Assembly (NCBI GenBank): GCA_003152105.1
Contig: PLZJ01000002.1
Span: forward strand, 236,257 to 300,256
Direction: 5' to 3'
Length of the DNA: 64,000 bases
From: Candidatus Levyibacteriota bacterium
GTDB taxonomy: Bacteria; Patescibacteriota; Microgenomatia; Levybacterales; UBA12049
Part shown: positions 7,247 to 41,734 of the stretch, piece by piece
Position numbering within the stretch: position 1 is the first letter of the stretch
Layout of the letters: the number at the start of each line of letters is the position of its first letter
Notes under the pieces: generated by a model
Told to the model about the DNA's origin: nothing
The model's input: the letters and a program-made list of their open reading frames with translations, nothing else
The model's database searches: none
Made by a program: the position numbers and the translations under genes

Positions 7247-7339
7247 GATTAAAAATAACCCAAATTAGTATAAATTAGATTACATTTATTTATCAACAGA
7301 CCATCAAGTGAGAAAAATTAATTGTCAACAACTGCAAAG

Positions 7340-8233: not shown

Positions 8234-8241
8234 AGTATTTA

Positions 8242-8643: not shown

Positions 8644-8944
8644 ATAATAAGAGTAATAAATTTATATTAGCGAGTCAAGTGTTTTTAAAATTTAATATTT
8701 TTTCTTACATTGTTCTTACGATTTTATTATGGATAAGTTACCTCAATATAGTTTAATGTATATATGAAATATATGTTCTATAAAAAATATGGTCAAACTC
8801 AACAGGAATTTAACGCAATTTATCAAATAGATCCTTTTTCAATTTCGTTATTCAATACAGAATACGAAACGCATAAAGGTAGTAAAGGTGGCAAATCTAT
8901 TAGAGTTAAAAAATCTAAGAAAATATATAAATAATCATTAGTCT

Positions 8945-18980: not shown

Positions 18981-18983
18981 ACG

Positions 18984-19526: not shown

Positions 19527-19530
19527 AACA

Positions 19531-20604
19531 TTATGCGATATTTTTTATTAAATTAAGTAGTTTAAAATTCCAATTTACGCGATGAGTATCTCCACGAGTG
19601 TTTAAAATACTACTTCTATTTTTCTCATACCATTTATAGCTTTCTAGTAATAATTCTTTATTGGATTTTTTAGGATGCCATTTAAGTTTTTTTTCTGCCT
19701 TTGAAATCGAAACATAGGAGGGTACTGGTAGTGTTTTGTAATGCCAAGCGCTAATTGGAGAAAGATTTGCCTTTTCAAGAATCATTAATAACAATTGAGA
19801 AGGTAAAACTGGCAATGAAATTATTCGTGATTTAGAGTTAGCATATTTTATTATTGATCCAAGATCTTTTCTCCAAGTACTGAATTCTTTTGCGCCAATA
19901 TTAAACGTTTCGTCACTTACTTCAAGAGTCAATGCCTTATATATTGCATCAACTACATCTGATACTGCAAGTAACTGATATTTATTATTTCCATTTCCAA
20001 GGATATATACATTTTTTCCAGAGTATATTGCTTCAAACCATAGTTGAAAAACTCCAAGTCTTTCGGGTCCTAGAAATGTTTTAGGGCGAATAATGTTTAT
20101 TGATAAACCTTTTTTTGTGAATTCATGACAAAGTTTTTCTCCTTCAACTTTTGATTCTCCATAATAACCAATGGGATCAATTGGGCTATCCTCTTGTTCT
20201 GGTAAGTACTTTGGCACACCGTAGACAGCAGTTGTAGAAATATAAACTAACCTTTTGGCTTTCTGTTTTAATGCTGCTTCTAATACATTGTGAGTCCCAT
20301 CAATATTAATACTATAAATAATTTTTTTACCTCTTTGTATAGGCAGAGCTGCAGCTGCATGAACAACTAAATCACTTCCTTTAATCGCGGTGTTGAGAGT
20401 ATGTTTATTGCGAATATCTCCTGAAATATAGGTAACTTTGCCAATTAAATCTTTTGCATCTAGGGGGGCAATGTCATACAGTACAACTTTGCATTTTTGC
20501 TTTAGTAGTTTTCTAGCTAGATGTACGCCTAGGAATCCTGTCCCTCCGGTAATAAATACTTTCATGTGACTCATATTGTAACATTTGGATTGTAATAATA
20601 ACAA
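19531..20604 (-). CDS. NAD-dependent epimerase/dehydratase (extended SDR)
   Basis: VFITGGTGFLGVHLARKLL glycine-rich NAD-binding motif. The size is typical of nucleotide-sugar epimerases. The likely true start is the internal MKVFITGG. Confidence 0.75.
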   Translation of the reverse strand: MLLLQSKCYNMSHMKVFITGGTGFLGVHLARKLLKQKCKVVLYDIAPLDAKDLIGKVTYISGDIRNKHTLNTAIKGSDLVVHAAAALPIQRGKKIIYSINIDGTHNVLEAALKQKAKRLVYISTTAVYGVPKYLPEQEDSPIDPIGYYGESKVEGEKLCHEFTKKGLSINIIRPKTFLGPERLGVFQLWFEAIYSGKNVYILGNGNNKYQLLAVSDVVDAIYKALTLEVSDETFNIGAKEFSTWRKDLGSIIKYANSKSRIISLPVLPSQLLLMILEKANLSPISAWHYKTLPVPSYVSISKAEKKLKWHPKKSNKELLLESYKWYEKNRSSILNTRGDTHRVNWNFKLLNLIKNIA

Positions 20605-20627
20605 TAACTGAACTTACTTTATTTAAT

Positions 20628-22415: not shown

Positions 22416-23994
22416 ATGAGTATATAGGATTATTTAAATAAGTAATACGACAAAAAATATCACAAGGAGTTATGTACATTAGTTTATATCCGGCTTCACC
22501 GTTTATCAGATGTTGGTAAAACACTGAACTTATTGGAAAGATTTTCGGTTTAAGTAATCTCGTTTTAATGATTCTTTGACTTGGTAAAATAATATAGTCT
22601 GCATTCCCAATACCTTTTGCAATATCAGAATGTAATATATCACTATCGTAAAAATTATATAGTTTTATATTTTCAAATGAACTGTTAAATGGAACTATTC
22701 CTAGATCATATATTTCAGAAACTATAGTTGCATTTTTTGGAATATGATTATGCGCATAAATCGCAGCAATTTCTCGAGTATCAGTTTCAACAAATGCTGT
22801 AATTACATACGAAATAGCAAAAATTGCAGAAATAAGTTCTAGTGTGCTTATGATAATTATCAATTGAAATTTCTTAGTTTTGAACTGATTCTGAAGATGG
22901 GTAAGCGTATATGCTATTAATAAATAAATAAAAGGTAGCGTTGGTATCATATATCTTGTCCATTTAACAAATAGAATTGCCTGCGAAACAAATAAGATAA
23001 TGAAAAATAATAATAGAAACAGTATCTGTTTTGACTTAAATCTGAACACAAGATAGATACAATAAATAAAACTAAATATAAATAGTAAAGTAACGAATGG
23101 ATTTAATAAAAAAGGGTATACATGTAGTAACTGAAATAAAATATCATTTTGTGAGATGAATTCTTGCGTATAGAATACTGGTAAAGTTCCCATTGCGACA
23201 GAAGATTCATACGTAATACTATGAATAAAAGAAGATGAATCTAAAATAGTATAAGGTGAAAAAATTACCGTAAGTATTACAATAAATGCGTATAACAACA
23301 ACGAGATAATTAAAAATGTAATTATATTTCTTGGCTGGAATCTAAATTTATTCAGTTTTCGAAATTCATTTTTGGCTTTATAGATTTGTAGAAATATTAA
23401 AATAGGAATTATTACACTATTTGATATTTTAATTGATAATAGAACGCCAATTATAAATACGCTTATAAATAAGTATTTATATGAAGGATTTTTCAAGAAT
23501 AATAAGACATCTAAAAATAAAAGAGTAAAGAAAAAAGTGCTCCACATTTCAAAAGTTCCAAAATGAGCAAATTGAATAAATCCTACACTAAATACTCCAA
23601 GCAGAAAAGCGATGGTGCCCGTTTGTCTGTTATGCATTTTTTTGCCAATAATAAAAAGAAGGATTGGTAAAAATGCGCTGAGAATAGCTGAATAAAATCG
23701 ATTAATAATTATTCCTTCAGAAAAGCTTACCTGCCATAGTTGTTGCAGCGGCATTCTACTTAAAAAATGCATTAATATTCCTGTAAAGTACACAATATAA
23801 ATAGGAAGTGATCCATAGGCAAAAAAATGCGGATTCATTTGGGAAGGAAATTGAAGTTGAGTAATGGATGAGGCAATATTACGTTCATCAGGATGAAAAT
23901 AGTAAGGTGTTCCCCAATTCAAATTATAAAATCGAAGCAAGAATAAGCATACAATAAGTATAAGTACGCTAAGGAAAAGAAAGAGTTTTCTCAT
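22354..23994 (-). CDS. GT-C-fold integral membrane glycosyltransferase (paralogue of preceding gene)
   Basis: LLRFYNLNWGTPYYFHPDERNIA loop motif identical in type to the neighbour. More than 10 TM helices. Confidence 0.55.
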   Translation of the reverse strand: MRKLFLFLSVLILIVCLFLLRFYNLNWGTPYYFHPDERNIASSITQLQFPSQMNPHFFAYGSLPIYIVYFTGILMHFLSRMPLQQLWQVSFSEGIIINRFYSAILSAFLPILLFIIGKKMHNRQTGTIAFLLGVFSVGFIQFAHFGTFEMWSTFFFTLLFLDVLLFLKNPSYKYLFISVFIIGVLLSIKISNSVIIPILIFLQIYKAKNEFRKLNKFRFQPRNIITFLIISLLLYAFIVILTVIFSPYTILDSSSFIHSITYESSVAMGTLPVFYTQEFISQNDILFQLLHVYPFLLNPFVTLLFIFSFIYCIYLVFRFKSKQILFLLLFFIILFVSQAILFVKWTRYMIPTLPFIYLLIAYTLTHLQNQFKTKKFQLIIIISTLELISAIFAISYVITAFVETDTREIAAIYAHNHIPKNATIVSEIYDLGIVPFNSSFENIKLYNFYDSDILHSDIAKGIGNADYIILPSQRIIKTRLLKPKIFPISSVFYQHLINGEAGYKLMYITPCDIFCRITYLNNPIYSYEETASVFDRPTIFIFKKSD

Positions 23995-23999
23995 TTGCT

Positions 24000-25280
24000 T
24001 TATGCCGTTGAAATGTCAGCGATTTTTTGCCCAAGTTCTACAGCATAATTTGTTCCTCTGTCCCAAGGATAAACTTGTTCAATATTTGCCAAAAATACAT
24101 TCGGTAAAGGAGTTTTAAATTTAGGGATAATTTTAGAATAATTTGTTGGAATTATCGGTTGCGCAAATGGAGTTCTAAATACACGATAATCAATTAAGTA
24201 TTCTTTGTACTTAGAATTAATTCTACTCAGTAAGGGATCATACATTTTTAATAATTCTTCATCGCTTGCTAAATATTTTTCTGAGTCTGTGGAAGGATAA
24301 TTACCAACATAAACAAGATGTTCGTTATTATAATTAGCAATATCCATCAGATTTGTATGTTCTACGACTACCATAACTGGAGACGGAGTTTCGCAAATGC
24401 TTAACCAATATGTTCCGTCTTTGATAAGTTGCTTTTTTAATCGTAGAACCATATTAGTAGCACCTAATCCTTGTAACTTAACTAGCGAATTCCTATATGT
24501 ATCAGGCAGTTGTGGAGTAATTTTCAAAAATAGATAAGATGGAAGAGTCACGATTATTTTGTCAAATTCATATGTTTCTTCTTCTCCCTTATTGTTTTTA
24601 AAAATCACGTTAGTTTTTTTATCATCTACAATTTTTAAAATCTCTGAATTATAGAGTACTTTTCCACCCTTTTTTTCTATAGTTGAAACAAGAGCTTCGG
24701 CAAATGAAAGAAATCCTCCTTTCGGATAGGCAAGTTGAGGAGTTCGTTTATAAATACGTGTCCAAAACCATACAAGGGAAACTACAGTTGCAAATTTACC
24801 CATTTTATTTACTAACTGTGGTTGCCACAGTAATTCATAGCCATGTTTACCCATTATTTTAGGTAAGAATGTACTTGCGTTTATTTTTTCAAGTGGTTTC
24901 CAAAATGGATTAAATTTTAAGAATGCAAGAGAGGCACCCATACGAAGCCGTTCAATAAGTGTTAATTTAGAGAATGTAAGTAGTGCTGAAGGAGAATCTA
25001 ACTGATAATTACTTCCATCAATAAAAACTGATGTTTTTGGTCGTTTGATGAGCACTTCAAAATTGATTTCTTTTGCAAGATCTAATACAAATGTGTCATT
25101 TGTAAACCAATGATGATAATGTTTTTCTAGTGACCATTTCCAATTTTTTTCCTTGTAACCAATTGCCAATCCTCCAGGATTTCCATCTTTTTCAATAATA
25201 GTAATATCATGATTTTGTTTTTGAAGTGCATGTGCTGCAGCAAGACCAGTAAAGCCCGCTCCTATTATTCCAATCTTCAT
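24000..25280 (-). CDS. FAD/NAD(P)-binding oxidoreductase (amine-oxidase/protoporphyrinogen-oxidase-like fold)
   Basis: N-terminal MKIGIIGAGFTGLAAAHAL...IIEKDGNPGG dinucleotide-binding motif. 426 aa. Confidence 0.6.
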   Translation of the reverse strand: MKIGIIGAGFTGLAAAHALQKQNHDITIIEKDGNPGGLAIGYKEKNWKWSLEKHYHHWFTNDTFVLDLAKEINFEVLIKRPKTSVFIDGSNYQLDSPSALLTFSKLTLIERLRMGASLAFLKFNPFWKPLEKINASTFLPKIMGKHGYELLWQPQLVNKMGKFATVVSLVWFWTRIYKRTPQLAYPKGGFLSFAEALVSTIEKKGGKVLYNSEILKIVDDKKTNVIFKNNKGEEETYEFDKIIVTLPSYLFLKITPQLPDTYRNSLVKLQGLGATNMVLRLKKQLIKDGTYWLSICETPSPVMVVVEHTNLMDIANYNNEHLVYVGNYPSTDSEKYLASDEELLKMYDPLLSRINSKYKEYLIDYRVFRTPFAQPIIPTNYSKIIPKFKTPLPNVFLANIEQVYPWDRGTNYAVELGQKIADISTA

Positions 25281-26635
25281 AATTTTGGTATTGTACCACG
25301 TGTAAGTGAAAATAGAATTATTCCGAAAAGTGCAAGTATGCCACCAATGACACTTCCTAATAGAACTGAATTGCTGCCCGTAGGTTTATTAGGCAACACT
25401 ACAGTAGGGGTGGGAGAAATTGAAAATGAAGGAGTGGTCGTAATGGTTACGGACGGTTTAGTAGAAGGAATGAGAGTTGGTGTAGTAGTTGGGAGTGGTG
25501 TAATGGTTGCCGAACTCGTGGCAGCTCCCTCGACAGAAGAACCAACAGGTAAAATAGAAAATTGTTCAGTAGCTTGTTTTAACACACCAGAGCTATCCCG
25601 AGAAATTATTGTAATTGTGTGGACTCCTACACTCAACGGACTATTTGGACGAAAAGTCCATTGCCCGTTACTATCTGAAGTTGTTTCAGTTTTGATGTTT
25701 GCGTTATCTTGTATATCGATTTCTATTTTGGAATTAGGTAAAGCAGTTCCTTCAAATCTGGGTTGGGGGTCATTGAAATTTTGATTTTTCTTTGGCGAAG
25801 TAAAACCAAGGGTTGTGCTTTGAACTAGTTGTGCACGAAGTATTACTGATGGAAAGGACTGGAGAAGAAGTAGATGGCTATTATTTTGAATCGGAGGAAA
25901 AGAATAAGAATTTGATAGCGTTAATAGTGGTAATGGATTCGTGTTAATTGTAAATAGCGAAACTATAGTTGTATATGATTGCGTACTTGCAACAAGACGA
26001 AGCATAGTCTGTGGAGTTATCGCAAAATAATTAGTCCCGTTTGTTGATCTAATCTGTGAAAGAGGTATGGAAAAGTTTTGTGTTTGATTAATAAGTTCTG
26101 AAATTAATGAAAACGAATTTGATTGAAGGTAAATTAATGCTTCATCTGGCGTGCTTCCATCTGGTAGTTCAAGCTTCCCCGATATCGAGTGTTGTGATAA
26201 AGGTTTTGAATGAATGTTCTGAAAGGTTTTTATAATATATGGTTGGCTATTTGTATTTTCATAGGTTTGTCCACCTGAGGCTATCGTAAAGTAATATGGA
26301 GTATTAGGAAGTAATCCTGTTACATTAAAGTAATGAATGTAGTGAGGCAGGGATTTTCCTGCATTATCGATTTGATCTAATTGCACTTTTCCTAGTGATG
26401 AATTAGGGCCATATGATAGAGAACCCAGTAGAAGAGAATTTGTTGTATAGGATACGGTAAATGATGTGTCGGTAAGATTGCTGATTGTCACATCTTGAGG
26501 TACTGAGGATATTGATGCGTGACCTTGATAATTTGTTTTTTGTTGCAAAAAATAGGAAGTAACTAGTATGCTTAGTAAAAGCGTACCTATAGCAAATAAA
26601 GAGGGAATGCGTTTTTCAGAGATGTTTCTGTTCAT
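25277..26635 (-). CDS. Surface protein with N-terminal signal anchor, beta-rich (FN3-like) region and C-terminal PT-rich stalk plus TM anchor
   Basis: N-terminal TM, long T/S/N-rich exported region, C-terminal P/T-rich tract, then a hydrophobic helix (VLLGSVIGGILALFGIILFSL). Confidence 0.4.
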   Translation of the reverse strand: MNRNISEKRIPSLFAIGTLLLSILVTSYFLQQKTNYQGHASISSVPQDVTISNLTDTSFTVSYTTNSLLLGSLSYGPNSSLGKVQLDQIDNAGKSLPHYIHYFNVTGLLPNTPYYFTIASGGQTYENTNSQPYIIKTFQNIHSKPLSQHSISGKLELPDGSTPDEALIYLQSNSFSLISELINQTQNFSIPLSQIRSTNGTNYFAITPQTMLRLVASTQSYTTIVSLFTINTNPLPLLTLSNSYSFPPIQNNSHLLLLQSFPSVILRAQLVQSTTLGFTSPKKNQNFNDPQPRFEGTALPNSKIEIDIQDNANIKTETTSDSNGQWTFRPNSPLSVGVHTITIISRDSSGVLKQATEQFSILPVGSSVEGAATSSATITPLPTTTPTLIPSTKPSVTITTTPSFSISPTPTVVLPNKPTGSNSVLLGSVIGGILALFGIILFSLTRGTIPKL

Positions 26636-26970
26636 GGTTGAGCAGGAGTCACATCTTGCACTGACTGAGTGTTTGAAGATGTAGAATCTTGCTGCACTGG
26701 TGTTTGCGTAGATGAAGGGGTAGGTGTGATTAATCCAGATAACGTTGCTGTTTCAATGTCATATAATGGATCTATTGATTGTCTTTGTTTAAGCTTATTA
26801 AGTGTTGTAGTATCAAATGTTGGATTAATGGGAAGTATTTGCATATTTAATTGTTGATCAATAGTAGAAGCGTGAAGTTTATGAAATACATTTACTCCAA
26901 TCCACACTAATACCGCAATAAATGTTAGAAAAAGTAAAATTACTAAGTCGCGTTGTGTATTACTCTTCAT
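26632..26970 (-). CDS. Small single-pass membrane protein (possibly pilus-assembly accessory)
   Basis: 112 aa, one TM, S/T/Q/P-rich tail. Sits immediately after the PilN/PilO-like pair with a 4-nt overlap. Confidence 0.3.
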   Translation of the reverse strand: MKSNTQRDLVILLFLTFIAVLVWIGVNVFHKLHASTIDQQLNMQILPINPTFDTTTLNKLKQRQSIDPLYDIETATLSGLITPTPSSTQTPVQQDSTSSNTQSVQDVTPAQP

Positions 26971-27604
26971 AATAAGCCTTTCCAGATATTATTAAACTAT
27001 AATTATCATTTGGGTTAACCGTTGTACTTGTGCTGCTGTTAGAGCTATCAGTTACTAATTGCGAATAAGATAATGAATCAATTGTAAGTATTCTGTCCAA
27101 AGTTAACAATGATTTTACATATGTATCTAAATATTCTCGGGGTCCATGAGCATTAATCGTAAAGGAATAATTACTTGCAGTATTTGGAACTTGTATTAAG
27201 GGTACTATAGATACAGTATTGATAATAACAGTATCAATTTTTACGCCATTATTTTCTCCTAATCGCTGCAATTGACCAACTAGATATGATGAATTTGGAG
27301 ATTTTGGTATTGCTGCGATAACCACAGGAATATCAAATTGTAGGTTTGCATACTCGGTAGTTAGGGAATCAAGGTTTTGATTTTTGGTTTCTAATTGATT
27401 CAAAACAAGAGTATTATCCGATATCTCTTTTTGTAACTGTGCAATAGTAGTAAGAGTTGGTCTTATTGCAAATATTCCAAATACGCAAAGAATAAAAAGT
27501 GTTAAAGCAAGAGTGGTATATTGTTGTGTTTTTTCACTCTTAAAATTAGGGAGAAACTTTGAAACCGTTTTTTGTTTAAAAAATAATTCTTTTGTATCAG
27601 TCAT
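26960..27604 (-). CDS. PilO-like type IV pilus assembly protein
   Basis: Short cytoplasmic segment, one TM (LALTLFILCVFGIFAI), a coiled coil (IAQLQKEISDNTLVLNQLETKNQNLDSL), then a beta-rich periplasmic-type domain. This is the PilO architecture. Confidence 0.4.
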   Translation of the reverse strand: MTDTKELFFKQKTVSKFLPNFKSEKTQQYTTLALTLFILCVFGIFAIRPTLTTIAQLQKEISDNTLVLNQLETKNQNLDSLTTEYANLQFDIPVVIAAIPKSPNSSYLVGQLQRLGENNGVKIDTVIINTVSIVPLIQVPNTASNYSFTINAHGPREYLDTYVKSLLTLDRILTIDSLSYSQLVTDSSNSSTSTTVNPNDNYSLIISGKAYYEE

Positions 27605-27605
27605 A

Positions 27606-28142
27606 TTATTTTAAGGTTAATGTGTAATTTGCTGTGATCGTACCATTAGAAGTGCTATTGTCGATTTGGTCAAGCTTAATGTTTGAGAAATCAGGTGAAG
27701 ATTGAAACGCGGAAGTAAGAGATTTGAGAGAGTCGGTTGAATAGGCTACCGCAGCCACAGTAACTGTTGATGAAGTAAATGCTACTGAGTTTAACTTTAT
27801 ATTGCTGGGAAGAAGTGCTTCTATATCAAATAAGCTTTTGATGGTACTATTTTCTTGCTTATTGTACGTTGAAGCGTAGCTAAGTCTACTCTGAAGATTA
27901 CGAAAAATTTTTTCATTCTGTGCGTAGGATTCTGTAATTAATTGTTCACTTTGAATTTGTGTGTTTAAATTTGCAATTTGATTGTCAAGTGAAAAACGGT
28001 ATATAAATGCGATTAAGGCAATAAGTTCCGTAATTATTACAACCAATTTTCCAATCCCAAGTGCCCAGCTTAAAAAGTTATCATAAAAGCCCTGTGAACT
28101 TTCTTGCGAAGCCAAATTAATAGCAACATCATTCTTTGCCAT
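27606..28142 (-). CDS. PilN-like type IV pilus assembly protein
   Basis: N-terminal AINLASQE (similar to the PilN INLLP motif), one TM, coiled coil, about 180 aa. Directly precedes the PilO-like gene. Confidence 0.4.
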   Translation of the reverse strand: MAKNDVAINLASQESSQGFYDNFLSWALGIGKLVVIITELIALIAFIYRFSLDNQIANLNTQIQSEQLITESYAQNEKIFRNLQSRLSYASTYNKQENSTIKSLFDIEALLPSNIKLNSVAFTSSTVTVAAVAYSTDSLKSLTSAFQSSPDFSNIKLDQIDNSTSNGTITANYTLTLK

Positions 28143-28571: not shown

Positions 28572-30230
28572 ATGGAATTTGTAAAAAAGAGTATACACCT
28601 CATAACGCTGCGACAAACAAATATTTTATCTGCTGCATTTGTAATAATGGCAATGACTGTATTCTCACAGTTGCTTGGTCTAATTAGACAGCGACTTCTG
28701 GTATCACATTTTGGTGCGTATAGTAATTTAGGCATATATTCAACCGCTACTCAGATACCTGATTCTTTGTTTCAGGTAATAATTGCTGGCGGATTAGCTT
28801 CAGCTTTCATCCCAGTTTTTTCAGATTTTTACGCAAAAGGAAAAGACGACGAAGCATACAGATTTGCTTCTTCAACTATTTTAATTGGAATGTTGGTATT
28901 TGCTTTTTTCGGACTACTATTATTATTTTTTACGCCATATATATTATTGCCAGCAAATTTAGGTGGACATTATAGTCAAGCTCAAATGACACTCATGGCA
29001 AATTTAGTACGGGTAGTAATATTTGCTCAACTTTTAATTATAGTAGCCAGCTTCTTTTCTGCAATTTTACAGTCATATAATAGATTTCTTATTCCTGGAT
29101 TTGCAGCAGCAATGTATAACTTGGGAATTATTCTTGGCATTGTATTATTTTCTCATACATATGGTATATTTGCCCCGGCGTACGGAGCAATAATTGGAGC
29201 CTTATTTTTTGCGGTAGTGCAAATACCATTACTTCGAAAATTACATTTTAAATTTCATCCCCAACTATCTTTATCTGCTCCAGGAGTTAAGAAGTTTATT
29301 CATCTTATGTGGCCACGAACAATTTCTATAGCAATTACTCAGTTTGGAATACTTTTCACATTACCTTTAATTTCGTTTTTGGCTGATCCAGGAAGAAATA
29401 GAATAATATTTGATTTTGCACAAACGCTAGCATTTGCCCCAACAGTTTTATTTGGTCAATCAATTGCGCAAGCAGCTTTTCCAGTACTATCACGAGAAAG
29501 AGACAGATTGGATCAATTTAAACTCACATTTACTACGAGTTTTACCCAATTACTTTATGTAATTTTACCGTTTTCTGTACTTTTCCTTGTTTTACGAATT
29601 CCTATCGTGCGTTTAGTTTATGGCGCACCAAGACTCGATTGGAACGCAACCGTATTGATTGGAACCACACTTGCTTGTTTTACTATTTCAATATTTTCTC
29701 AAGCTTTACTATATTTAGTATCACGAGCTTTTTACGCGTTGCACGATACAAGAACCCCTCTAATAGTTAGTTTTATCACCACTGTTCTTATGTTACTGTT
29801 GAGTTTAGGATTTATTACTTATTATCAGTGGGGTGTTGCTGGAATCGCACTTGCTTATTCTTTGGCAAGTTTTCTACAGCTGCTCATATTATTCATAATA
29901 CTAGATCATAGAATAGGTGGCTTTTTTCATAGCGGCTTATTCATCTCCATAGGAAAGATATTTACGGCTGCATTTTTTACTGGAATAGCTCTATATATTC
30001 CTATAAAACTTCTTGATAAATTAGTTTTTGATACAACTCATACGATCAATTTATTGATGCTTTCTGGAATTTCCAGTTTTATAGGTCTTTTACTTTATTT
30101 ATTATTAACATGGTTATTAAATGTGAAAGAAGCCATGCTGTTTATAGTCGCATTCAAAAAAATAGATACCTGGAAAGAAGTCTTATTTCGTTCCGATGAA
30201 ACAATAGATCCAAAAAGACTAAATACTTAG
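28572..30230 (+). CDS. murJ: Lipid II flippase MurJ (MviN family)
   Basis: 14 TM helices. SQLLGLIRQRLLVSHFGA...ATQIPDSLFQVIIAGGLASAFIPVFS conserved MurJ N-terminal blocks. Confidence 0.8.
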   Translation: MEFVKKSIHLITLRQTNILSAAFVIMAMTVFSQLLGLIRQRLLVSHFGAYSNLGIYSTATQIPDSLFQVIIAGGLASAFIPVFSDFYAKGKDDEAYRFASSTILIGMLVFAFFGLLLLFFTPYILLPANLGGHYSQAQMTLMANLVRVVIFAQLLIIVASFFSAILQSYNRFLIPGFAAAMYNLGIILGIVLFSHTYGIFAPAYGAIIGALFFAVVQIPLLRKLHFKFHPQLSLSAPGVKKFIHLMWPRTISIAITQFGILFTLPLISFLADPGRNRIIFDFAQTLAFAPTVLFGQSIAQAAFPVLSRERDRLDQFKLTFTTSFTQLLYVILPFSVLFLVLRIPIVRLVYGAPRLDWNATVLIGTTLACFTISIFSQALLYLVSRAFYALHDTRTPLIVSFITTVLMLLLSLGFITYYQWGVAGIALAYSLASFLQLLILFIILDHRIGGFFHSGLFISIGKIFTAAFFTGIALYIPIKLLDKLVFDTTHTINLLMLSGISSFIGLLLYLLLTWLLNVKEAMLFIVAFKKIDTWKEVLFRSDETIDPKRLNT

Positions 30231-35559: not shown

Positions 35560-36411
35560 ATGAGGAAAATTATCGCGATAATTGTACCGTTACTATTAGC
35601 ATGTATCGTCTTTTTTGTATTCGAATATTTTGCAAACAAATCAAGTGATAAAGGCGCACTTCAGGTTACCTCAACTCCAGCGAGTAACGTATATGTAAAT
35701 GGGGCTTATGTCGGTAAAACTCCAATTTGTAAATGTGATTTACCAAACATGTTACCGATCGGTAACTATTCAATAAGCTTAGTACCAATTGATACACAAT
35801 ATTCAGCATATGAAGACTCAATTTCTATCACAAAGTCAGTACTTACTGTGGTAGATAGGACATTTGGTAAGGGAGCTTTTTCTGAGGGAAGCATAATAGG
35901 CTTAACTCCATTACCTGATAAAAATGCAATGGAAATAATAGTGCAAACAGTCCCAGATAAAGTGCATGTAATGCTGGATAATATTTCACAAGGAGATAGT
36001 CCTCAAATTATAAAAAATGTGACTGCATCAGATCATGAAATTGAATTATCAAAAGATGGCTATCGAGAGAAAATAATTCGAATACATACTGTTTCTGGAT
36101 ATCAACTAATAGCAAAAGTGTATTTAAGTGTTAATCCAAATCCCACATCATCACAACAAAAAGTAAGCACAACTCCCACGCCAAGTGTATCAACAACTCC
36201 AACTGCGTCAACATCTCAGATTATCATTCTACAAACTCCTACCGGTTATTTACGTGTTCATTCAACTGCTTCAACACAAGCAAGCGAAGTTGGACGTGTT
36301 AATCCAGGAGATACTTTTCCATTAATTGATCAGAAAACAGGCTGGTTTGAAATAACACTTACAGATGGAACGAAGGGTTGGGTTAGTAGTCAGTATGCGA
36401 AAATCAAATAA
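35560..36411 (+). CDS. PEGA-domain plus bacterial SH3 (SH3b) domain membrane-anchored protein
   Basis: N-terminal TM. LQVTSTPASNVYVNGAYVGKTPI is a PEGA repeat. The C-terminal GYLRVHSTAS...GDTFPLIDQKTGWFEITLTDGTKGWVSSQY is an SH3b fold signature. Confidence 0.6.
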   Translation: MRKIIAIIVPLLLACIVFFVFEYFANKSSDKGALQVTSTPASNVYVNGAYVGKTPICKCDLPNMLPIGNYSISLVPIDTQYSAYEDSISITKSVLTVVDRTFGKGAFSEGSIIGLTPLPDKNAMEIIVQTVPDKVHVMLDNISQGDSPQIIKNVTASDHEIELSKDGYREKIIRIHTVSGYQLIAKVYLSVNPNPTSSQQKVSTTPTPSVSTTPTASTSQIIILQTPTGYLRVHSTASTQASEVGRVNPGDTFPLIDQKTGWFEITLTDGTKGWVSSQYAKIK

Positions 36412-37404
36412 TTAATAATTAGCTGGATTAATAAAATAGATTACAAAAATTAAAAGAACAACCCATATTATTATTGATATAAAAAATGGCCGGTCAGATA
36501 AGAATACTTTTTCAGGACTTTCTCCTTCATGCTTTTCATAAATATCTTGAAGGTAACGCATGAGCCCATATACAACAGGTGCAATAGTTATCATTAACCA
36601 TTTTCTCGTTAAAAAAGTTGGTAAATAATCAGGGAATAAAATACTAAATGATGGTTTAAATCCAGTTTGATTCTCAAAAAAAGTGAAAAAAGAGTAAGTT
36701 ATAAAAGTAGATGTTGCAAACATTGCGATATAAACGTCTAATAGTCTTTCAGAATAATGTGAAAGTGATTTTCTGGTTGCAGCTATTTGTGAAGCGGGAA
36801 ACTTTGAAATAAGTGTAAGTTCTTGTCTTCTCTTGCCGCTTGCTAAAAAGAGCGATAATGAAATAGTTGTAAGTAAGAGCCAAACTGAAATATGCCAACC
36901 TGTTGCAAATTCACCGGCCAAAACTCTTATAATATATCCCGCAGCAAGCATCAATATGTCAATAATCGCTACATGTTTCAAGAATGCCGAATAAGAAAGT
37001 TGTAAGATTACATATACGATTATAATAAGGAAAAATGCAGGCGTGATAAATAAACTTCCAATAATTGAACCAACTGTGAGAAGAATGGTAATTGCTATAG
37101 CTAATGGTATTGATAAATCTCCGTGAGCAAGCGGGCGAAATTTTTTAAATGGATGAAGCTTATCTTTACTTACATCTAGAATATCGTTGGCAACATAGAT
37201 AGCTGAAGATACTCCACAAAATATAAAAAAGGCAATTACCGTTTTATAAAATAACCCTCCATCAAATAGATGTCCACTAAATGTTATTGCCGCAAATACA
37301 GCAAAATTTTTAATCCACTGACGTGGTCTCAATAGTTTTAAAATGCTAAACAATTTTGTTTTTTTCATCTTTTTGGGTGCTAAAGTGTAAAAACAATAAG
37401 GCAC
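36412..37404 (-). CDS. UbiA-family prenyltransferase, decaprenyl-phosphate 5-phosphoribosyltransferase (DPPR synthase)-like
   Basis: LRPRQWIKNFAVFAA and the ANDILDVSKDKLHP (NDxxDxxxD) motif match the DPPR-synthase subfamily of UbiA enzymes. Polytopic membrane protein. Confidence 0.65.
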   Translation of the reverse strand: MPYCFYTLAPKKMKKTKLFSILKLLRPRQWIKNFAVFAAITFSGHLFDGGLFYKTVIAFFIFCGVSSAIYVANDILDVSKDKLHPFKKFRPLAHGDLSIPLAIAITILLTVGSIIGSLFITPAFFLIIIVYVILQLSYSAFLKHVAIIDILMLAAGYIIRVLAGEFATGWHISVWLLLTTISLSLFLASGKRRQELTLISKFPASQIAATRKSLSHYSERLLDVYIAMFATSTFITYSFFTFFENQTGFKPSFSILFPDYLPTFLTRKWLMITIAPVVYGLMRYLQDIYEKHEGESPEKVFLSDRPFFISIIIWVVLLIFVIYFINPANY

Positions 37405-38440
37405 CCGTTACGACAACTGCTAGCATGCACAATGCGAACAACTTCCCTTTACTGTTTAACAAAAGAGCAACCGTGCCTAATATAGCAGAAACCAACCAGT
37501 AAAACAATGCAATACGTCTTTGAGACCATCCTTTTTGCAAAAGTAAGTGATGTAAATGCTTCTTATCTCCTTTAAAAACCGACTTCCCACTGAGTAGTCT
37601 CCTAAATAACGTAAAAATTCCGTCGACCATTGGTACTCCCATTACCAGTATTGCCGTTGCAAGTTTAGCCGATGACAATATGGACACTACGCTTAGTAAT
37701 AAATAAATTGAAGTTGCTCCGTATCCAGGAAAAATTTTAGCTGGATAAAAATTATAAAACAAAAAACCTATTGAGGCTCCAGCAATAATAAAACTTAGCT
37801 GTGCAGCAAGTAAAGAGTGACTATCTACTGATGCAAAACGTAAGCTAAGTATACCAATTACAAAGGCAGAAATAGCCACAATTCCTGGCATTTGTCCATC
37901 AACTCCCTTGCTCCAGTTAAGCATATTCATCACCCATACAAGCCACAATCCTGCAATTACATCAGATAATAATAATATTGAGTGTGTCCCAAAAAATGAA
38001 AAAGAAATCCTTACGGTATCTAGATGTAATATGCCGCCAAATGGATTTGTAATAAAAGGAATACTGATACCGCTTCCAACTACAAGTAATGCGCAAAATA
38101 TATTTGCTAGAAAACGTATGTACCTTGAAAAATCGCCTACTTTGTCATCTATTAATCCTATAAGTAATGCTATTAATGAGGCTATAAAAAGTATTAGAGT
38201 GAGCTTGGTATGAGGAAGAAATATTATTCCAGAAACTAACACGCCAAGATAAAAAGGCAATCCGCCACCTCTTGGGATAGGTTTAGTGTGAATAATTGCC
38301 GGATGTATATGTTGTTTTGGATCATCAATCAAAATTTTGTATTTCTTGAATAAAAATATAAAAATAGGTGTTGTAATGGTCGTTACAATAAGCGAAACTG
38401 CTAAGGAGAAAAGAAATGTCCCAGAAAATACATTGTACAT
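37346..38440 (-). CDS. MraY/WecA-family polyprenyl-phosphate N-acetylhexosamine-1-phosphate transferase (GT4)
   Basis: 10-11 TM helices. GLIDDK, MNMLNWSKGVDG and DKKHLHHLL blocks are characteristic of the MraY/WecA/WbpL superfamily. It is not in a dcw context, so WecA-like is favoured. Confidence 0.65.
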   Translation of the reverse strand: MYNVFSGTFLFSLAVSLIVTTITTPIFIFLFKKYKILIDDPKQHIHPAIIHTKPIPRGGGLPFYLGVLVSGIIFLPHTKLTLILFIASLIALLIGLIDDKVGDFSRYIRFLANIFCALLVVGSGISIPFITNPFGGILHLDTVRISFSFFGTHSILLLSDVIAGLWLVWVMNMLNWSKGVDGQMPGIVAISAFVIGILSLRFASVDSHSLLAAQLSFIIAGASIGFLFYNFYPAKIFPGYGATSIYLLLSVVSILSSAKLATAILVMGVPMVDGIFTLFRRLLSGKSVFKGDKKHLHHLLLQKGWSQRRIALFYWLVSAILGTVALLLNSKGKLFALCMLAVVVTGALLFLHFSTQKDEKNKIV

Positions 38441-38441
38441 A

Positions 38442-38798
38442 TTAAAAAAATACTACGATTAATGTCCTGAGTAAAAATAAAAAAGATAATGAAATAGTAA
38501 CAAATGCAGATAAAGAAATCATACGCGAAACCAAAGCATATTTTTGATAGAAAAAAGAAGCAATAGTAGTATTTAATACTAAAATTCCAAGTCCTAATGT
38601 AAAAGGCAAAAAAATTGTAACTCGCGATGCAATTCTTCCGACTCCCCACGGCATTTGATTATATATAGGAATCAATGGAGGTAAATTATGGTATGCAAGA
38701 ACTACAATTCCTAAAAATAGCACTAAAAATAAAATGGAAAGCAGTACGCTTCCGCTTATAATTCTATCGGTAAATAATGTTTTAAAACGTTCGTTCAT
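38442..38798 (-). CDS. Small polytopic membrane protein (hypothetical)
   Basis: 118 aa with 3 TM helices. Overlaps the upstream GT-C gene by 17 nt. Confidence 0.35.
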   Translation of the reverse strand: MNERFKTLFTDRIISGSVLLSILFLVLFLGIVVLAYHNLPPLIPIYNQMPWGVGRIASRVTIFLPFTLGLGILVLNTTIASFFYQKYALVSRMISLSAFVTISLSFLFLLRTLIVVFF

Positions 38799-40239
38799 AA
38801 ATAGTTGTGTCTTTTATCTTCAATTTTTCCATGTATTGACTTAAAGAATAGGGGTACTGGCCTGCGTTAGAAATAACAACAATGTATTTTGGTTTTGCTT
38901 TATACACTATTTGCCTTGTTTCATTTAATGTCTTTTGGGAAGCGTTAATATGATAGGCAACGGTAAATCTTCCTGGAGGAATTTTATTTGCTAATTTGTA
39001 TATTTGTGCATCATTTCCCCATATAAATATTGAATCGCGTTGCTTAGCATTTCCATTAATAAAACTGGCGACTTCGTAGTCACGAATTGTGTTTTGATCA
39101 AAAAATTGCTGGTAGGTAGCAACAGATTCACGATTTTGAACAAAGGAGATAAAATTTCGATAGTATGGAATTATTGATTTACCAAATCCATGAAAATTAT
39201 TAAGAATTAGCATAATTAATCCAATCTGAAAAACAGCAAAAAATAGTTTTCCTCTATATCGTGAAAAAAGTAATCCAAAAAGGAGAGACATACTGCTAAT
39301 AGTTACGAGTAAATAATGCGTATAAGGACGTTGTGAGAAAAAAGTATCAAATATTGCAAAGCCTGTCCAAAGAAGAATAAATTGTACTTGACTTGGAATT
39401 TTTTTTCGTAAAAAGAAAATAATACAACATAGTACAAGAAGTAAAATAAGTTTTGCAATTAATAGTCCTTGAGGTATTATAAAAGTGTTTCCGTACCCAA
39501 CATACCCAACATTCTGAGAAAAAGAAGCATTAATAAAGTCACCAAGTGAATGAGTGAGTAAAAAGAAAGCTACAGTTACAAAAATTGGTAGAAAAAAACC
39601 AACTATTAAAGGTGTTACTTTAATAACTTGACTCGGAACCAGCTTAATTGATTTGTAGTCTTGAATTAATAAGTAAAGTCCAAATGCGCCCAAGTCAAAA
39701 ATGCCAACAATTTTTATCAGAAATGCAAATGAAAGTAAGAGTCCTGCAAAAAATTGTAATTTGCCAAAATGTTTTGATGTTTTGTTTTGAATTATTAAAA
39801 GCCCACTGCACATAATAGGTAGAATCATAAAATTTTCCGCATTTGCGATATTTCCTTCCAGTATAGGTAGTCCAAAAAGAACAGCAAATACAAGCGCAGA
39901 AATTGAAGATGCAATCGTTGAATGTAGTAATCGTCTCGCAAGAAAATAGATTGTAATTACTGAAAGTAGTCCAAAAATTAGTGATGCAAGCTTAGCACCA
40001 AATTGATCCCCATTAAATAATGCGTATATGATGTATAAAAGTGGTGGTTTATTATCCCAAATCCCGGTGTAAAGCAATCTGCCATGTCTCATGGCAAATC
40101 CGATAGCCTCATAAATCCCTTCATCTCCATACCAATATGGTTCAAATAAGGAAGGGAATCTGAGTATAAAAAATAAAATACATGTACATAATAAAAACCA
40201 AAAGTGAAAACTTTTCTCAAGTTTTGACAATAAATTCAT
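38782..40239 (-). CDS. GT-C-fold membrane glycosyltransferase (PMT/ArnT-like)
   Basis: First loop carries YWYGDEGIYEAIGFAMRHG, a DE motif typical of GT39/GT83 lipid-linked sugar transferases. 485 aa and polytopic. Confidence 0.6.
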   Translation of the reverse strand: MNLLSKLEKSFHFWFLLCTCILFFILRFPSLFEPYWYGDEGIYEAIGFAMRHGRLLYTGIWDNKPPLLYIIYALFNGDQFGAKLASLIFGLLSVITIYFLARRLLHSTIASSISALVFAVLFGLPILEGNIANAENFMILPIMCSGLLIIQNKTSKHFGKLQFFAGLLLSFAFLIKIVGIFDLGAFGLYLLIQDYKSIKLVPSQVIKVTPLIVGFFLPIFVTVAFFLLTHSLGDFINASFSQNVGYVGYGNTFIIPQGLLIAKLILLLVLCCIIFFLRKKIPSQVQFILLWTGFAIFDTFFSQRPYTHYLLVTISSMSLLFGLLFSRYRGKLFFAVFQIGLIMLILNNFHGFGKSIIPYYRNFISFVQNRESVATYQQFFDQNTIRDYEVASFINGNAKQRDSIFIWGNDAQIYKLANKIPPGRFTVAYHINASQKTLNETRQIVYKAKPKYIVVISNAGQYPYSLSQYMEKLKIKDTTIYERTF

Positions 40240-40240
40240 G

Positions 40241-41734
40241 TTATACCTTTTCTGTTACCTTATATTCCATTCGTTTACCAAACATTAATTTTGTATGTGA
40301 AATCATTGCAGGGACTGTTGCTAGAAAAAATCCCACTATTGGAAGAAGAAAAAATTCAAGGGGAAATAAAAACTGTCTAGTTTTTGAAACATGCGATTCT
40401 CTAGGTCTCATTCTATAATCAATTATAATCATGCAAAGAATAGCAAAAAGGGTTGTGGTAAGTATTGTTCTTGCAATATCAGGAAGAGTGTTCCCGAGTG
40501 AAGTTCTTGTAAAAATAGGATTTACAAAAGGCATGATATTGGCTGCAACTGTGATAATAAACCAATTGACAGGCCAAAGAAAATGATCAAGTAAGACGTT
40601 AAATAAAAGCCATGTTTTTCTAAAAAATGGCACACCAGGAACTGTTAGCCACCACTTAATAAAAAGAGGGTCATCTGAAACTCCCCAAGACCATCGCATT
40701 TCTTGGTTATATCTATTTTTAAGACTTTTGATATAAGTTGATGATTGCGCAGCATCCATAGAAGTTTTTAGGAAAATTGGCTCAACCCAAGCATTGCCTT
40801 TTAACACAAAAAAGGCTTTAAAGAAAATTCGATAATCCTCTGGTACTACATCAGTATCCCAATACCCTATTTCATGTAACATTTTAAATGTTAATGAATA
40901 GGTTGAATTAGATACTAATCTGTCTGGTTGTACGAGTAATGCTGCCCTGTGTAGGCTATTAAAAAATGACATTACACGAATAGGAGCGGGTACATCCCAG
41001 AAATTGTTGTAATGTACATTTGCTGATTGCCAAAATTTACTATATCGTTTTGGATCTCTTAAAAAGGAATAAGTTAAATAAGAAAAATAATTTTTATCAA
41101 ATAATGAATCTGCATCTACTGAGGAAATTGTTGCGTAATTAATATCAATTAAACCTGTTTCAACTAACTTACTGTAAGCAAATTTGCCTCCAAATGCTTC
41201 ATTTGATGATTTTCCAACCACTTCACCGGGAATTCTTGGATGAAAGGAAGCGAGTACTGAACCGAACCTATCACCAAATTCTTTTATTAGAATACTAGCT
41301 TTTTCTTTTGAGTCAACAGCTCTTTCTTCCATTGCAAGAACAATATGAATTTTTTTAAGAGGAAGTGTTTGATAAGTTAATACATGGAGCGTTTTCCTGA
41401 TTTTTTCAACTGATTCGTTGTAATTTGGAATTATTACTACATGAGTTGTTTTCTCAAAATTTTCCAATTTTTCTGCCTTTGAAAGCCAGTCAGTCTTTTC
41501 AGCTGCTCGAATACGCTTTAAAGCAATATAGGCTGATACCACAAGTGAAAAAGATTTATAAAACCAATAAACATCGAAAAATAAGATAAAGTAAGCAACA
41601 ACTGCTGGAAATGTTATGGAACCCCAAACCGGAAACGTAATAAGAGCCCACGAAAAAAAACCAGGTACAATTTCAAGCGCGCGGCGTGTTTTGATAGGAT
41701 ATTTTGTAAAAAGCTTTGCAAATGCAAGTGTCAT
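40241..41734 (-). CDS. Membrane-bound family 2 glycosyltransferase, processive type (QxxRW)
   Basis: N-terminal TMs, VVIIPNYNES GT-A start, DxD region, QEMRWSWG (the QxxRW motif of cellulose/chitin/hyaluronan synthase-like enzymes), then C-terminal TMs. Confidence 0.65.
   Translation of the reverse strand: MTLAFAKLFTKYPIKTRRALEIVPGFFSWALITFPVWGSITFPAVVAYFILFFDVYWFYKSFSLVVSAYIALKRIRAAEKTDWLSKAEKLENFEKTTHVVIIPNYNESVEKIRKTLHVLTYQTLPLKKIHIVLAMEERAVDSKEKASILIKEFGDRFGSVLASFHPRIPGEVVGKSSNEAFGGKFAYSKLVETGLIDINYATISSVDADSLFDKNYFSYLTYSFLRDPKRYSKFWQSANVHYNNFWDVPAPIRVMSFFNSLHRAALLVQPDRLVSNSTYSLTFKMLHEIGYWDTDVVPEDYRIFFKAFFVLKGNAWVEPIFLKTSMDAAQSSTYIKSLKNRYNQEMRWSWGVSDDPLFIKWWLTVPGVPFFRKTWLLFNVLLDHFLWPVNWFIITVAANIMPFVNPIFTRTSLGNTLPDIARTILTTTLFAILCMIIIDYRMRPRESHVSKTRQFLFPLEFFLLPIVGFFLATVPAMISHTKLMFGKRMEYKVTEKV

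Follow-up and report, generated by a model that had tools for sequence, protein, structure and literature searches.

A probable lipid-linked pentofuranose glycosylation system, split between two gene blocks, in a Levybacteria genome

The subject of this analysis is a 64,000-nt stretch of contig PLZJ01000002.1 from a Candidatus Levyibacteriota bacterium (~33% G+C; the whole stretch is referred to as the window), and within it a UbiA-family gene and the envelope-related genes that accompany it. Homology and gene neighbourhood favour the presence in the window of a system for lipid-linked pentofuranose glycosylation, of the same kind as the mycobacterial decaprenylphosphoryl arabinose (DPA) pathway and the "three-component" glycosylation systems, and we consider this probable though by no means assured. 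The predicted system is split in two. Block A (36412..41734) comprises the UbiA gene, a polyprenyl-phosphate N-acetylhexosamine-1-phosphate transferase (PNPT, or GT4) family gene, a gene for a small membrane protein, a GT-C glycosyltransferase gene and a membrane-embedded GT2 glycosyltransferase gene; block B (16767..25280) is a second cluster with further GT-C candidates, an extended short-chain dehydrogenase/reductase (SDR) and a flavoprotein. The idea of a lipid-linked pentose donor that feeds surface glycosylation was already part of an original prediction made from the sequence, and it is still the best reading, because a UbiA of the decaprenyl-phosphate 5-phosphoribosyltransferase (DPPRS) clade is linked with GT-Cs of the type that use polyprenyl-phosphate sugars.

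Block A is present as first described: five consecutive open reading frames (ORFs) on the minus strand, tightly packed; from UbiA to the GT2, the first and third junctions are overlaps of 23 and 17 nt and the second and fourth are gaps of 1 nt. Genes for methionyl-tRNA synthetase (MetRS) and TatD precede it on the same strand, separated by gaps or overlaps of only 1–4 nt. The motifs named at the outset (RPRQWIKN, NDILDVSKD, DEGIY and QEMRW) were all found and are invariant or nearly so among homologues, and the assignments are backed by homology of high significance and do not depend on fortuitous motif hits; none of the five is a chance ORF. The five genes are real, but the module was drawn too narrowly, as the most conserved neighbours of UbiA across lineages of the Candidate Phyla Radiation (CPR, or Patescibacteria) include block B. 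The closest relatives of the window proteins, at 59–81% identity, all come from metagenome-assembled genomes labelled Levybacteria, Microgenomates or Patescibacteria. The window has no tRNA or Rfam feature, and nothing informative came from scans for promoters and terminators.

The UbiA protein carries the argument. It matches Pfam PF01040 (E 8.5e-18) and clears the cut-offs of two NCBIfam equivalogs for decaprenyl-phosphate phosphoribosyltransferase (NF008977, 237.8 bits with a cut-off of 234; NF008978, 230.8 bits with a cut-off of 207), while remaining below that of a third DPPRS model (NF008976, 184 vs 474). It aligns over its full length with Rv3806c of Mycobacterium tuberculosis (PDB 8j8j; E 5e-42, 35% identity), and its first Asp-rich motif, NDxxDxxxD, reads NDILDVSKD, with N61, D62, D65 and D69 invariant in 80 relatives. 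Cryo-EM of Rv3806c has identified the residues that bind decaprenyl phosphate, ribose, 5-phosphate, pyrophosphate and Mg2+ as R22, K28, Y70, N73, D77, K87, R90, Q135, Y138, K143, Y157 and K191, and the phosphoribose-binding residues are not common to ordinary UbiA prenyltransferases (PMC10994848). All 12 are identical in the window UbiA, and each is kept in 78–80 of the 80 Levybacteria homologues. The ATG at 37368, which gives a 318-aa product identical to a database-called protein, is probably the true start; a GTG at 37404 does not give such a product.

Membership of the Pfam UbiA family, and the name "4-hydroxybenzoate polyprenyltransferase" on some homologues in JGI, could be taken to mean that the protein is an ordinary prenyltransferase of the quinone, heme O, chlorophyll or archaeal-lipid type and that no lipid-linked pentose is made. 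Models of other UbiA subfamilies (DGGGP, chlorophyll and heme-O synthase), however, score at most 47 bits on it, compared with 238 bits for the DPPRS models, and the phosphoribose-binding residues that set Rv3806c apart are all there. In a neighbour-joining tree with the limited outgroup sampling of E. coli UbiA, MenA and CyoE, the DPPRS-type clade that includes the window UbiA was monophyletic in 99 of 100 bootstraps, support being an explicit count of clades over the bootstraps. The protein therefore falls where its subfamily assignment had placed it, with the DPPRS proteins and not with the quinone, heme or archaeal-lipid prenyltransferases. The ordinary-prenyltransferase reading is effectively refuted, and we give it next to no credence. 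It is strongly supported instead that UbiA is a phosphoribosyl pyrophosphate (PRPP)-dependent polyprenyl-phosphate phosphoribosyltransferase, with polyprenyl-P-(5-P)-ribose as the predicted product. Among CPR records the DPPRS name is already in use in both NCBI and JGI.

Enzymes of this kind have a documented role well beyond mycobacteria. Kelly et al. (PNAS 2024; PMC11127046) demonstrated biochemically that glycans of Citrobacter receive alpha-pentofuranoses through the action of an Rv3806c homologue, a flippase and a GT-C, with an SDR epimerase that turns the ribose donor into xylose; their arabinose-containing examples are accompanied by DprE1/E2 homologues, and such systems are described in many bacteria. 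A tblastn search of plasmids with the window UbiA recovered annotated DPPRS genes in Alpha-, Beta- and Gammaproteobacteria, Bacteroidota, Lactococcus (Bacillota), a cyanobacterium, actinomycetes and haloarchaea, with, as a rule, a GT-C and a PAP2, HAD or PHP phosphatase as neighbours and in many cases GtrA, SMR or EamA as well. The family as a whole comprises 12,686 clusters at 50% identity (E <= 1e-3). The proposal that a DPA-like pathway would be notable outside Actinobacteria is thus outdated, given the 2024 report, the wide spread of plasmid homologues and the names that CPR proteins already carry, and it is not new; our literature search found no paper on the CPR genes themselves. The linkage between a polyprenyl-phosphate 5-phosphoribosyltransferase (PPPRS) and a GT-C that characterizes three-component systems is present here too. 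UbiA lies two genes from the 485-aa GT-C of block A, GT-C genes occur together with UbiA in Legionella, haloarchaea and Lactococcus as well as in the CPR loci L108, L109 and L110, and in L109 and L110 the two are directly adjacent.

These distant CPR contexts were reached through representatives of 50%-identity clusters, since a scan of genome contigs returned Levybacteria only. In L109 (Shapirobacteria) UbiA is preceded by a homologue of the block B flavoprotein FAD426 (40% identity) and followed by homologues of the 546-aa membrane protein u546 and of the 595-aa GT-C PMT2_595 (47%) and by two more PMT_2 proteins; further along come a homologue of the soluble 180-aa protein u180 (33%) and, at the end of the cluster, one of the DUF2298 protein (48%). 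L110 has the order FAD (37%), UbiA, GT-C, GT-C, its PMT2_595 homologue being 36% identical. The u546 homologue that directly follows UbiA in both loci is annotated as PMT_2. Block B (FAD426, u546, PMT2_595, SDR357, u180 and DUF2298) is the gene set of the L109/L110 type minus UbiA, which in Levybacteria lies 11 kb away from it, beside the PNPT gene.

Two genes of block B, the extended SDR (SDR357) and FAD426, had been flagged as candidate epimerase partners of the DprE1/DprE2 type. Neither is a DprE1 or DprE2 homologue, but both belong to families that are partners of PPPRS genes by gene neighbourhood. SDR357, as an extended SDR with HpnA as its best NCBIfam match and GalE-like matches in the PDB, is of another family than the classical adh_short DprE2; FAD426 is a PRK07233-type flavoprotein of the amine-oxidase fold with no FAD_binding_4/ALO domain, and was rejected as DprE1. 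In Natronococcus AD-5, Halostagnicola, Haloterrigena, Streptomyces sp. SAT1 and Nonomuraea, a DPPRS-type UbiA gene has as its immediate neighbour an SDR that is 38–42% identical to SDR357 over the full length, and in Natronococcus CG52 such an SDR (again 38–42%) lies ~3 kb from UbiA; in S. fredii NGR234 and Rhizobium sp. CCGE531, SDRs with 34% identity lie within ~5.5 kb of UbiA. The family was beside or within ~5.5 kb of a DPPRS-type UbiA in all eight plasmid records for which both positions were examined. The CCGE531 locus is among the candidate "elaborate" systems listed by Kelly et al. (2024; PMC11127046).

FAD426 homologues occur in a cassette of a HAD-UbiA fusion, DprE1-like, DprE2-like, extended SDR, FAD oxidoreductase, GtrA and GT-C-like genes, seen on plasmids of Rhizobium (L089), Burkholderia (L090), Rhodobacteraceae (L092) and Agrobacterium (L093). 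The extended SDR of this proteobacterial six-gene cassette was considered as an orthologue of SDR357 and rejected, as the match is only weak (E 1e-7 to 1e-11). In the cassette two flavoprotein/SDR pairs follow the HAD-fused UbiA, one DprE1-like plus DprE2-like and the other a PRK07233 flavoprotein plus an extended SDR, and it may perform two successive epimerizations of a lipid-linked pentose. The best FAD426 homologue outside the CPR (31%) is on a 5.7-Mb Embleya sp. "plasmid" (L091), after a DegT aminotransferase and a 325-aa GT2; because no UbiA is near it, the flavoprotein family may also act on other polyprenyl-phosphate sugars. DPPRS-type loci on two haloarchaeal megaplasmids (L098, L102) hold an SDR with 41–42% identity to SDR357, a GT-C named "DolP-mannose mannosyltransferase", a PHP-domain protein, an LPG-synthase transmembrane (TM)-domain protein and a GT39, with sulfotransferase genes nearby, which suggests a pentofuranose system in Archaea.

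Of the possible end products, arabinose was the first to be considered. A true DPA pathway as in Corynebacterineae, with genes for DprE1/DprE2-type epimerases in another part of the 1.14-Mb genome and with the GT-C acting as an arabinofuranosyltransferase, would agree with a UbiA that is a close functional homologue of Rv3806c and with the DprE1/E2-like genes that accompany PPPRS in some non-actinobacterial loci (PMC11127046), and our inspection covered 64 kb plus 20 kb of that genome. No FAD_binding_4/ALO domain (DprE1), adh_short domain (DprE2) or PAP2 domain (Rv3807c-like) was detected, however, in the window or its 10-kb flanks. Searches by tblastn of the window and 91 CPR loci (1.54 Mb in total) were likewise empty for two DprE1-like proteins from Rhizobium and Burkholderia, for two DprE2-like proteins and for PAP2. 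The partners that are linked with UbiA are others, namely an extended SDR and a PRK07233 flavoprotein. The arabinose product is thus not supported by these searches, and we judge a true DPA pathway unlikely; a pentofuranose system whose sugar need not be arabinose is the reading we retain.

The GT-C and GT2 assignments in block A are sound at the level of family and fold. The 485-aa GT-C scores 38.3 bits against PMT_2 (cut-off 26.1) and also matches PMT; the motif WYGDEGxY in its first external loop, with D39 and E40, is invariant in 31 homologues, and the protein itself is annotated as GT39-like. A sequence search of the PDB gave no match, and its AlphaFold model (mean per-residue confidence, pLDDT, 88.8; pTM 0.88) returned ArnT (5f15) as the top Foldseek hit, followed by AglB, STT3, DPY19 and Pmt. 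The GT-C with a DEGIY loop proposed originally is borne out by the PMT_2 score, the ArnT-like fold and the invariant GDEGxY.

The 497-aa GT2 has no Pfam match of its own, no sequence match in the PDB and no homologue in the plasmid collection, and matches the NCBIfam PgaC_IcaA model weakly. PF13632/PF13641 are found in its homologues, which go under the names GT2 or "cellulose synthase/PNAG synthase-like". D207/D209, E299-D300 and Q344xxR347W348 (QEMRW) are invariant. The model of this protein has a pLDDT of 70.5 overall, above 85 in the GT-A domain and weak in the TM parts; its Foldseek matches are the hyaluronan synthases CvHAS (Chlorella virus) and XlHAS1 (Xenopus) and the cellulose synthase BcsA (E 5e-8 to 1e-6, TM-score up to 0.58). 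Motifs and fold thus agree with the label "processive GT2", which is reasonable at that level, processivity itself being a prediction.

The PNPT protein belongs to PF00953, although its matches to the NCBIfam WecA and MraY equivalogs are weak and far under the cut-offs. Aligned with E. coli MraY and WecA, it retains DDxxD (D98, D99 and D103 invariant) and a WecA-like HLHH. The small membrane protein next to it proved to be a three-TM protein of 118 aa with an invariant loop, LPPxxPxxNQxPWGxxR. It has no Pfam, NCBIfam or PDB family (Pfam search on 26 members, PDB profile search), and in the absence of such support, or of a family hidden Markov model (HMM) match to the flippases of reference loci, it was rejected as a GtrA/SMR/EamA flippase or PAP2 phosphatase. 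In the CPR locus L111 the PNPT homologue (8026..9540 of that locus) is 504 aa long, and its extra ~150 N-terminal residues show the same three-helix layout and a related loop; the HMM of the small protein gave a weak, position-consistent match there (17.8 bits, conditional E 6e-7). The L111 protein looks like a fusion with the small-protein segment, and this resemblance suggests that the 118-aa protein is a partner or subunit of the PNPT rather than a donor flippase.

Block A is widely conserved. Among the best 80 of 197 genome matches to the window UbiA, all of them Levybacteria, the order TatD-GT2-GT-C-small protein-PNPT-UbiA, with a PEGA/SH3 gene convergent to it, is preserved on every contig of sufficient length; UbiA is present in 80 of these loci, the PNPT in 78, the small protein in 76, the GT-C in 74 and the GT2 in 70. 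Within Levybacteria the GT2, UbiA and PNPT are 60–70% identical, about the same as MetRS and GroEL, and this housekeeping level of identity suggests a core envelope function rather than the decoration of a variable antigen.

From these elements the following pathway can be proposed. UbiA, for which the homology is strong, would move 5-phosphoribose from PRPP onto polyprenyl phosphate at the cytoplasmic face of the membrane. The 5-phosphate would then be removed; u180, whose HAD-like motifs are conserved with its L109 homologue, is the sole phosphatase candidate seen and so the candidate ribose-5-phosphate phosphatase. As their cross-phylum neighbourhoods suggest, SDR357 and/or FAD426 may tailor or epimerize the lipid-linked ribose, the result being not necessarily arabinose but possibly a ribo-, xylo- or another pentofuranose. 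The donor would next be flipped across the membrane, a step for which no GtrA, SMR or MATE candidate was found in the window. Outside the membrane the 485-aa ArnT-like GT-C and the 546-aa and 595-aa PMT_2-type GT-Cs, perhaps with the DUF2298 protein, are predicted from family, fold and linkage to transfer the pentose. The acceptor glycan, in the most tentative part of the scheme, may be primed by the divergent PNPT and its small partner and/or made by the synthase-type GT2. The LytR-CpsA-Psr (LCP) protein, possibly the final ligase, might fix the product to the wall in a manner that resembles arabinogalactan assembly.

Several observations weigh against this scheme, and the first group concerns its middle steps. 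Searches by tblastn with the HAD-PRP, PHP, GtrA, SMR and EamA proteins of reference loci were empty in the window and the CPR loci. Within the window MurJ is a generic flippase candidate only, and TatD, considered as the phosphoesterase, scores as an ordinary TatD/YchF exonuclease. Because the characterized phosphatase, flippase and epimerase families were not detected, dephosphorylation, tailoring and flipping rest on candidates without precedent. For u180, no match was found in Pfam or the PDB at E values up to 10, so that its HAD reading is one of motifs only. In the proteobacterial cassettes the FAD426 homologue occurs together with DprE1/E2-like genes and does not replace them, and the haloarchaeal loci have the SDR without the flavoprotein.

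The second group concerns the PNPT. Its NxxNxxDGxDGL region reads NMLNWSKGVDGQ, with the first Asp changed to Lys (K178), and its VFMGDxGS region reads KIFPG-YGA, in which the Asp is missing and a Tyr (Y240) stands in its place; the K178/Y240 pattern is invariant in 75 Levybacteria homologues. The acidic residues of these two MraY/WecA motifs matter for catalysis and Mg2+ binding. The protein may therefore be no conventional transferase, and may be a metal-independent or repurposed PNPT. Of the label first given to it, a HexNAc (N-acetylhexosamine)-1-P transferase, the family stands, and the label holds at family level only, since two canonical acidic residues are missing.

The last group concerns the unity of block A. 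The entire region from MetRS through GroEL and LepA to MurJ is syntenic throughout Levybacteria, and because of this adjacency within Levybacteria is weak evidence of function. A single Levybacteria locus (L036, RIFCSPHIGHO2_01_FULL_37_17) has no GT-C, the small protein following directly after the GT2 (7085..8866). Possibly, then, the five genes do not form one pathway: UbiA would work with GT-C, SDR and FAD proteins, and the GT2, perhaps with the PNPT and small protein, would be independent and near UbiA through conserved MetRS-TatD housekeeping synteny alone. L110, where UbiA is 43% identical, fits this well, as a GT2 homologue (47%) sits beside MetRS there and UbiA lies 6.6 kb off with FAD and GT-Cs. 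So does L109, where UbiA is found with FAD and four GT-Cs and with no PNPT or 497-aa-type GT2 nearby, and MetRS and TatD, which are functionally unrelated, share the same tight operon. Against it, the six-gene order TatD-GT2-GT-C-small protein-PNPT-UbiA and the PEGA gene are intact in L112 (UbiA 56%) although the flanks are rearranged, L108 (UbiA 46%) has GT-C-small protein-PNPT-UbiA without GT2 or TatD, and L111 (UbiA 44%) retains MetRS-TatD-GT2-PNPT (504 aa)-regulator-UbiA without a GT-C at merely 31–44% identity across GT2, PNPT and UbiA; overlapping stop and start codons in the window further suggest co-translation. Separate pathways are in our estimate possible but short of probable. Within block A the link between PNPT, small protein and UbiA is the most robust, and that of the GT2 is plausible, not secure.

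The pentofuranose system could also act on proteins. Here the GT-Cs would O-glycosylate surface proteins with a pentofuranose, as TfpW puts D-arabinofuranose (D-Araf) on the pilin of Pseudomonas aeruginosa, a precedent cited in Kelly et al. (PMC11127046), with type IV pilins, the PEGA-SH3 protein (rich in Ser, Thr and Pro) and the Big_13 protein as possible targets. The GT-Cs are PMT/GT39-like, and block B continues on the same strand from pilN, pilO, a 112-aa protein and the Big_13 gene, which overlaps FAD426 by 4 nt, with a like order in L110. In 79 of the 80 Levybacteria loci, UbiA and the PEGA-SH3 gene, whose product has a T/S/P-rich linker, converge. No pilin gene was identified beside the clusters, however, the pil synteny may be incidental, and a glycopolymer is suggested by the LCP ligase, the PNPT and the synthase-type GT2. 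We consider a protein acceptor rather doubtful and keep a surface glycan as the preferred, though tentative, target of the system.

A bolder proposal can be put forward tentatively. Microgenomates-type CPR bacteria might use an uncharacterized set for tailoring lipid-linked ribose, made up of the PRK07233 flavoprotein, the extended SDR and possibly a novel HAD-like phosphatase, that replaces or is unlike DprE1/DprE2. On the outer side of the membrane, three to five GT-C paralogues would polymerize the resulting pentofuranose (xylo-, arabino- or other), the polymer being either a core wall glycan or a pentofuranan linked to protein. If this is true, the PPPRS loci of haloarchaea, actinomycetes and Proteobacteria would contain the same SDR and flavoprotein families as unrecognized components. 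Two families without an assigned function, the PRK07233 flavoprotein and the HpnA-like extended SDR, travel with PRPP-dependent lipid-pentose synthases in three domains or phyla and could account for the formation of pentofuranoses other than arabinose. CPR bacteria represent a large share of bacterial diversity and live attached to host cells; to our knowledge their surface chemistry is almost unknown. A pentofuranose system conserved at housekeeping-like identity in ~1-Mb genomes would be a testable handle on their envelope.

Table 1. Predicted features of blocks A and B and of nearby genes, with positions in the window
Feature	Position	Strand	Basis
Block A: UbiA-family polyprenyl-phosphate 5-phosphoribosyltransferase (PPPRS/DPPRS type), 318 aa	36412..37368	-	NCBIfam, PDB 8j8j, residues, tree
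Block A: divergent MraY/WecA-family (PNPT, PF00953) membrane protein, 364 aa	37346..38440	-	Pfam E 2.3e-20, 73.6 bits
Block A: three-TM protein, 118 aa, probable PNPT (GT4) partner/subunit	38442..38798	-	Loop motif; weak match to L111 PNPT N-terminus
Block A: GT-C (PMT_2/GT39-like, ArnT-like fold) with C-terminal soluble domain, 485 aa	38782..40239	-	Pfam, AlphaFold, Foldseek
Block A: membrane-embedded GT2, processive-synthase type, 497 aa; membership of the pentose system uncertain	40241..41734	-	Motifs, fold, Pfam of homologues
PEGA + SH3b protein with Thr/Ser/Pro-rich linker	35560..36411	+	Convergent with UbiA, 0-nt gap
Block B: PRK07233-type FAD oxidoreductase (FAD426), amine-oxidase fold, 426 aa	24000..25280	-	NF005560 369 bits (cut-off 252)
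Block B: polytopic membrane protein (u546), probable GT-C, 546 aa	22354..23994	-	~10 hydrophobic segments; weak PMT_2, E 0.004
Block B: GT-C glycosyltransferase PMT_2 (PMT2_595), 595 aa	20628..22415	-	PMT_2 E 6e-13
Block B: extended SDR (SDR357), NAD-dependent epimerase/dehydratase family, 357 aa (347 as called)	19531..20604	-	Pfam Epimerase E 2.7e-43
Block B: soluble HAD-like-motif protein (u180), 180 aa	18984..19526	-	Motifs DLDxV, SSR/TSR, IDDD
Block B: DUF2298 / chlor_Arch_YYY polytopic membrane protein, 737 aa, probable GT-C-like transferase	16767..18980	-	PF10060 E 7e-97; TIGR03662 498 bits
LCP (LytR-CpsA-Psr) glycopolymer transferase, 380 aa	15619..16761	+	TIGR00350 84.8 bits (cut-off 62.3); PF03816
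Big_13/fn3 protein	25277..26635	-	
pilO	26960..27604	-	
pilN	27606..28142	-	
MurJ	28572..30230		
FemAB-family peptidyltransferase	11989..13038		
HAD hydrolase	9771..10526		

The surroundings of the two blocks hold further envelope-related genes. The LCP gene adjoins block B on the opposite strand, and a HAD hydrolase, a FemAB-family peptidyltransferase and MurJ lie near that block. The pilN and pilO genes, the 112-aa protein, which is Ser/Thr-rich, the Big_13/fn3 gene and block B form one co-oriented run (16767..28142, minus strand) with overlaps or gaps of a few nt; in L110 pil genes (pilO-Big_13) likewise precede FAD-UbiA-GT-C. Pentose glycosylation may here be connected with type IV pili, by analogy with P. 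aeruginosa. The PEGA-SH3 gene keeps its convergent place beside UbiA in L112 as well, and in L111 a PEGA/SH3 gene lies ~2.7 kb past UbiA; its product is possibly a glycosylation target or a wall-binding protein. Many Levybacteria-like contigs (L016, L018, L030 and others), with a UbiA of 64–67% identity and the same synteny, are titled "uncultured Gammaproteobacteria bacterium", which looks like a mislabel in the public record.

Some components resemble parts of systems that are otherwise different. Like MraY and WecA, the PNPT belongs to the PF00953 fold family and has DDxxD, a WecA-like HxHH and PxxD...RR; it differs by the Lys at the first Asp of NxxNxxDGxDGL, by FPG-YG without the Asp of FMGD, and by its novel three-TM companion, apparently fused to such a protein in one lineage (L111). 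The GT2 is arranged like hyaluronan synthase, BcsA and PgaC/IcaA: TM helices at either end flank a GT-A domain, the D, D, ED and QxxRW motifs are present, and these enzymes are its top fold matches. It is only 12–15% identical to them, however, and is without PilZ or any other regulatory domain. In the ArnT/ArnC system for lipid A aminoarabinose, ArnT, the undecaprenyl-phosphate aminoarabinose transferase, is the top structural match of the 485-aa GT-C. The donor synthase there is a GT2 (ArnC) with a UDP-sugar, whereas the window has a PRPP-dependent UbiA, and lipid A is absent from a CPR monoderm.

Among complete pathways, the mycobacterial DPA/arabinan pathway (Rv3806c, the PAP2 protein Rv3807c, DprE1/DprE2, Emb/Aft, WecA, GlfT2 and Lcp1) shares with the window a UbiA with the same residues at 35% identity and, likewise, several GT-Cs, a PNPT, a GT2 and a nearby LCP, so that the overall logic could be parallel. 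It differs in that no DprE1, DprE2, PAP2 or Glf was found in the window, that the GT2 is of the membrane-embedded synthase type and not GlfT2-like, that the GT-Cs are small and ArnT/PMT-like instead of Emb/Aft-like, that the PNPT is without two canonical acidic residues, and that the host is a CPR bacterium with a genome of ~1.1 Mb. The P. aeruginosa pilin system (PPPRS, DprE1/E2 homologues and TfpW) shares the occurrence of a PPPRS homologue with a GT-C outside Actinobacteria, and the GT-C/SDR/FAD cluster of the window directly follows type IV pilus assembly genes; the window has neither DprE1/E2 nor a pilin gene beside the clusters, and a protein acceptor is hypothetical in this case.

The three-component system of Citrobacter youngae O1/O2 consists of a PPPRS-PRP (ORF15), a MATE flippase (ORF14), a GT136 GT-C (ORF12) and an SDR epimerase (ORF13). 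It has in common with the window a PPPRS and GT-Cs, a candidate SDR epimerase and the idea of a polyprenyl-phosphate-ribofuranose donor with optional epimerization. In the window, however, UbiA stands alone, not fused to a HAD phosphatase, searches gave no MATE, SMR or GtrA protein, several GT-Cs take the place of one, a PRK07233 flavoprotein is added, the genes form two blocks 11 kb apart, and they are core genes instead of a variable O-antigen locus. What sets the window apart is that such genes occur in a CPR bacterium without the usual phosphatase, flippase and DprE partners. Uncharacterized partners stand in their place, namely the PRK07233 flavoprotein, the HpnA-like SDR, the several GT-Cs, and the atypical PNPT together with its novel small protein.

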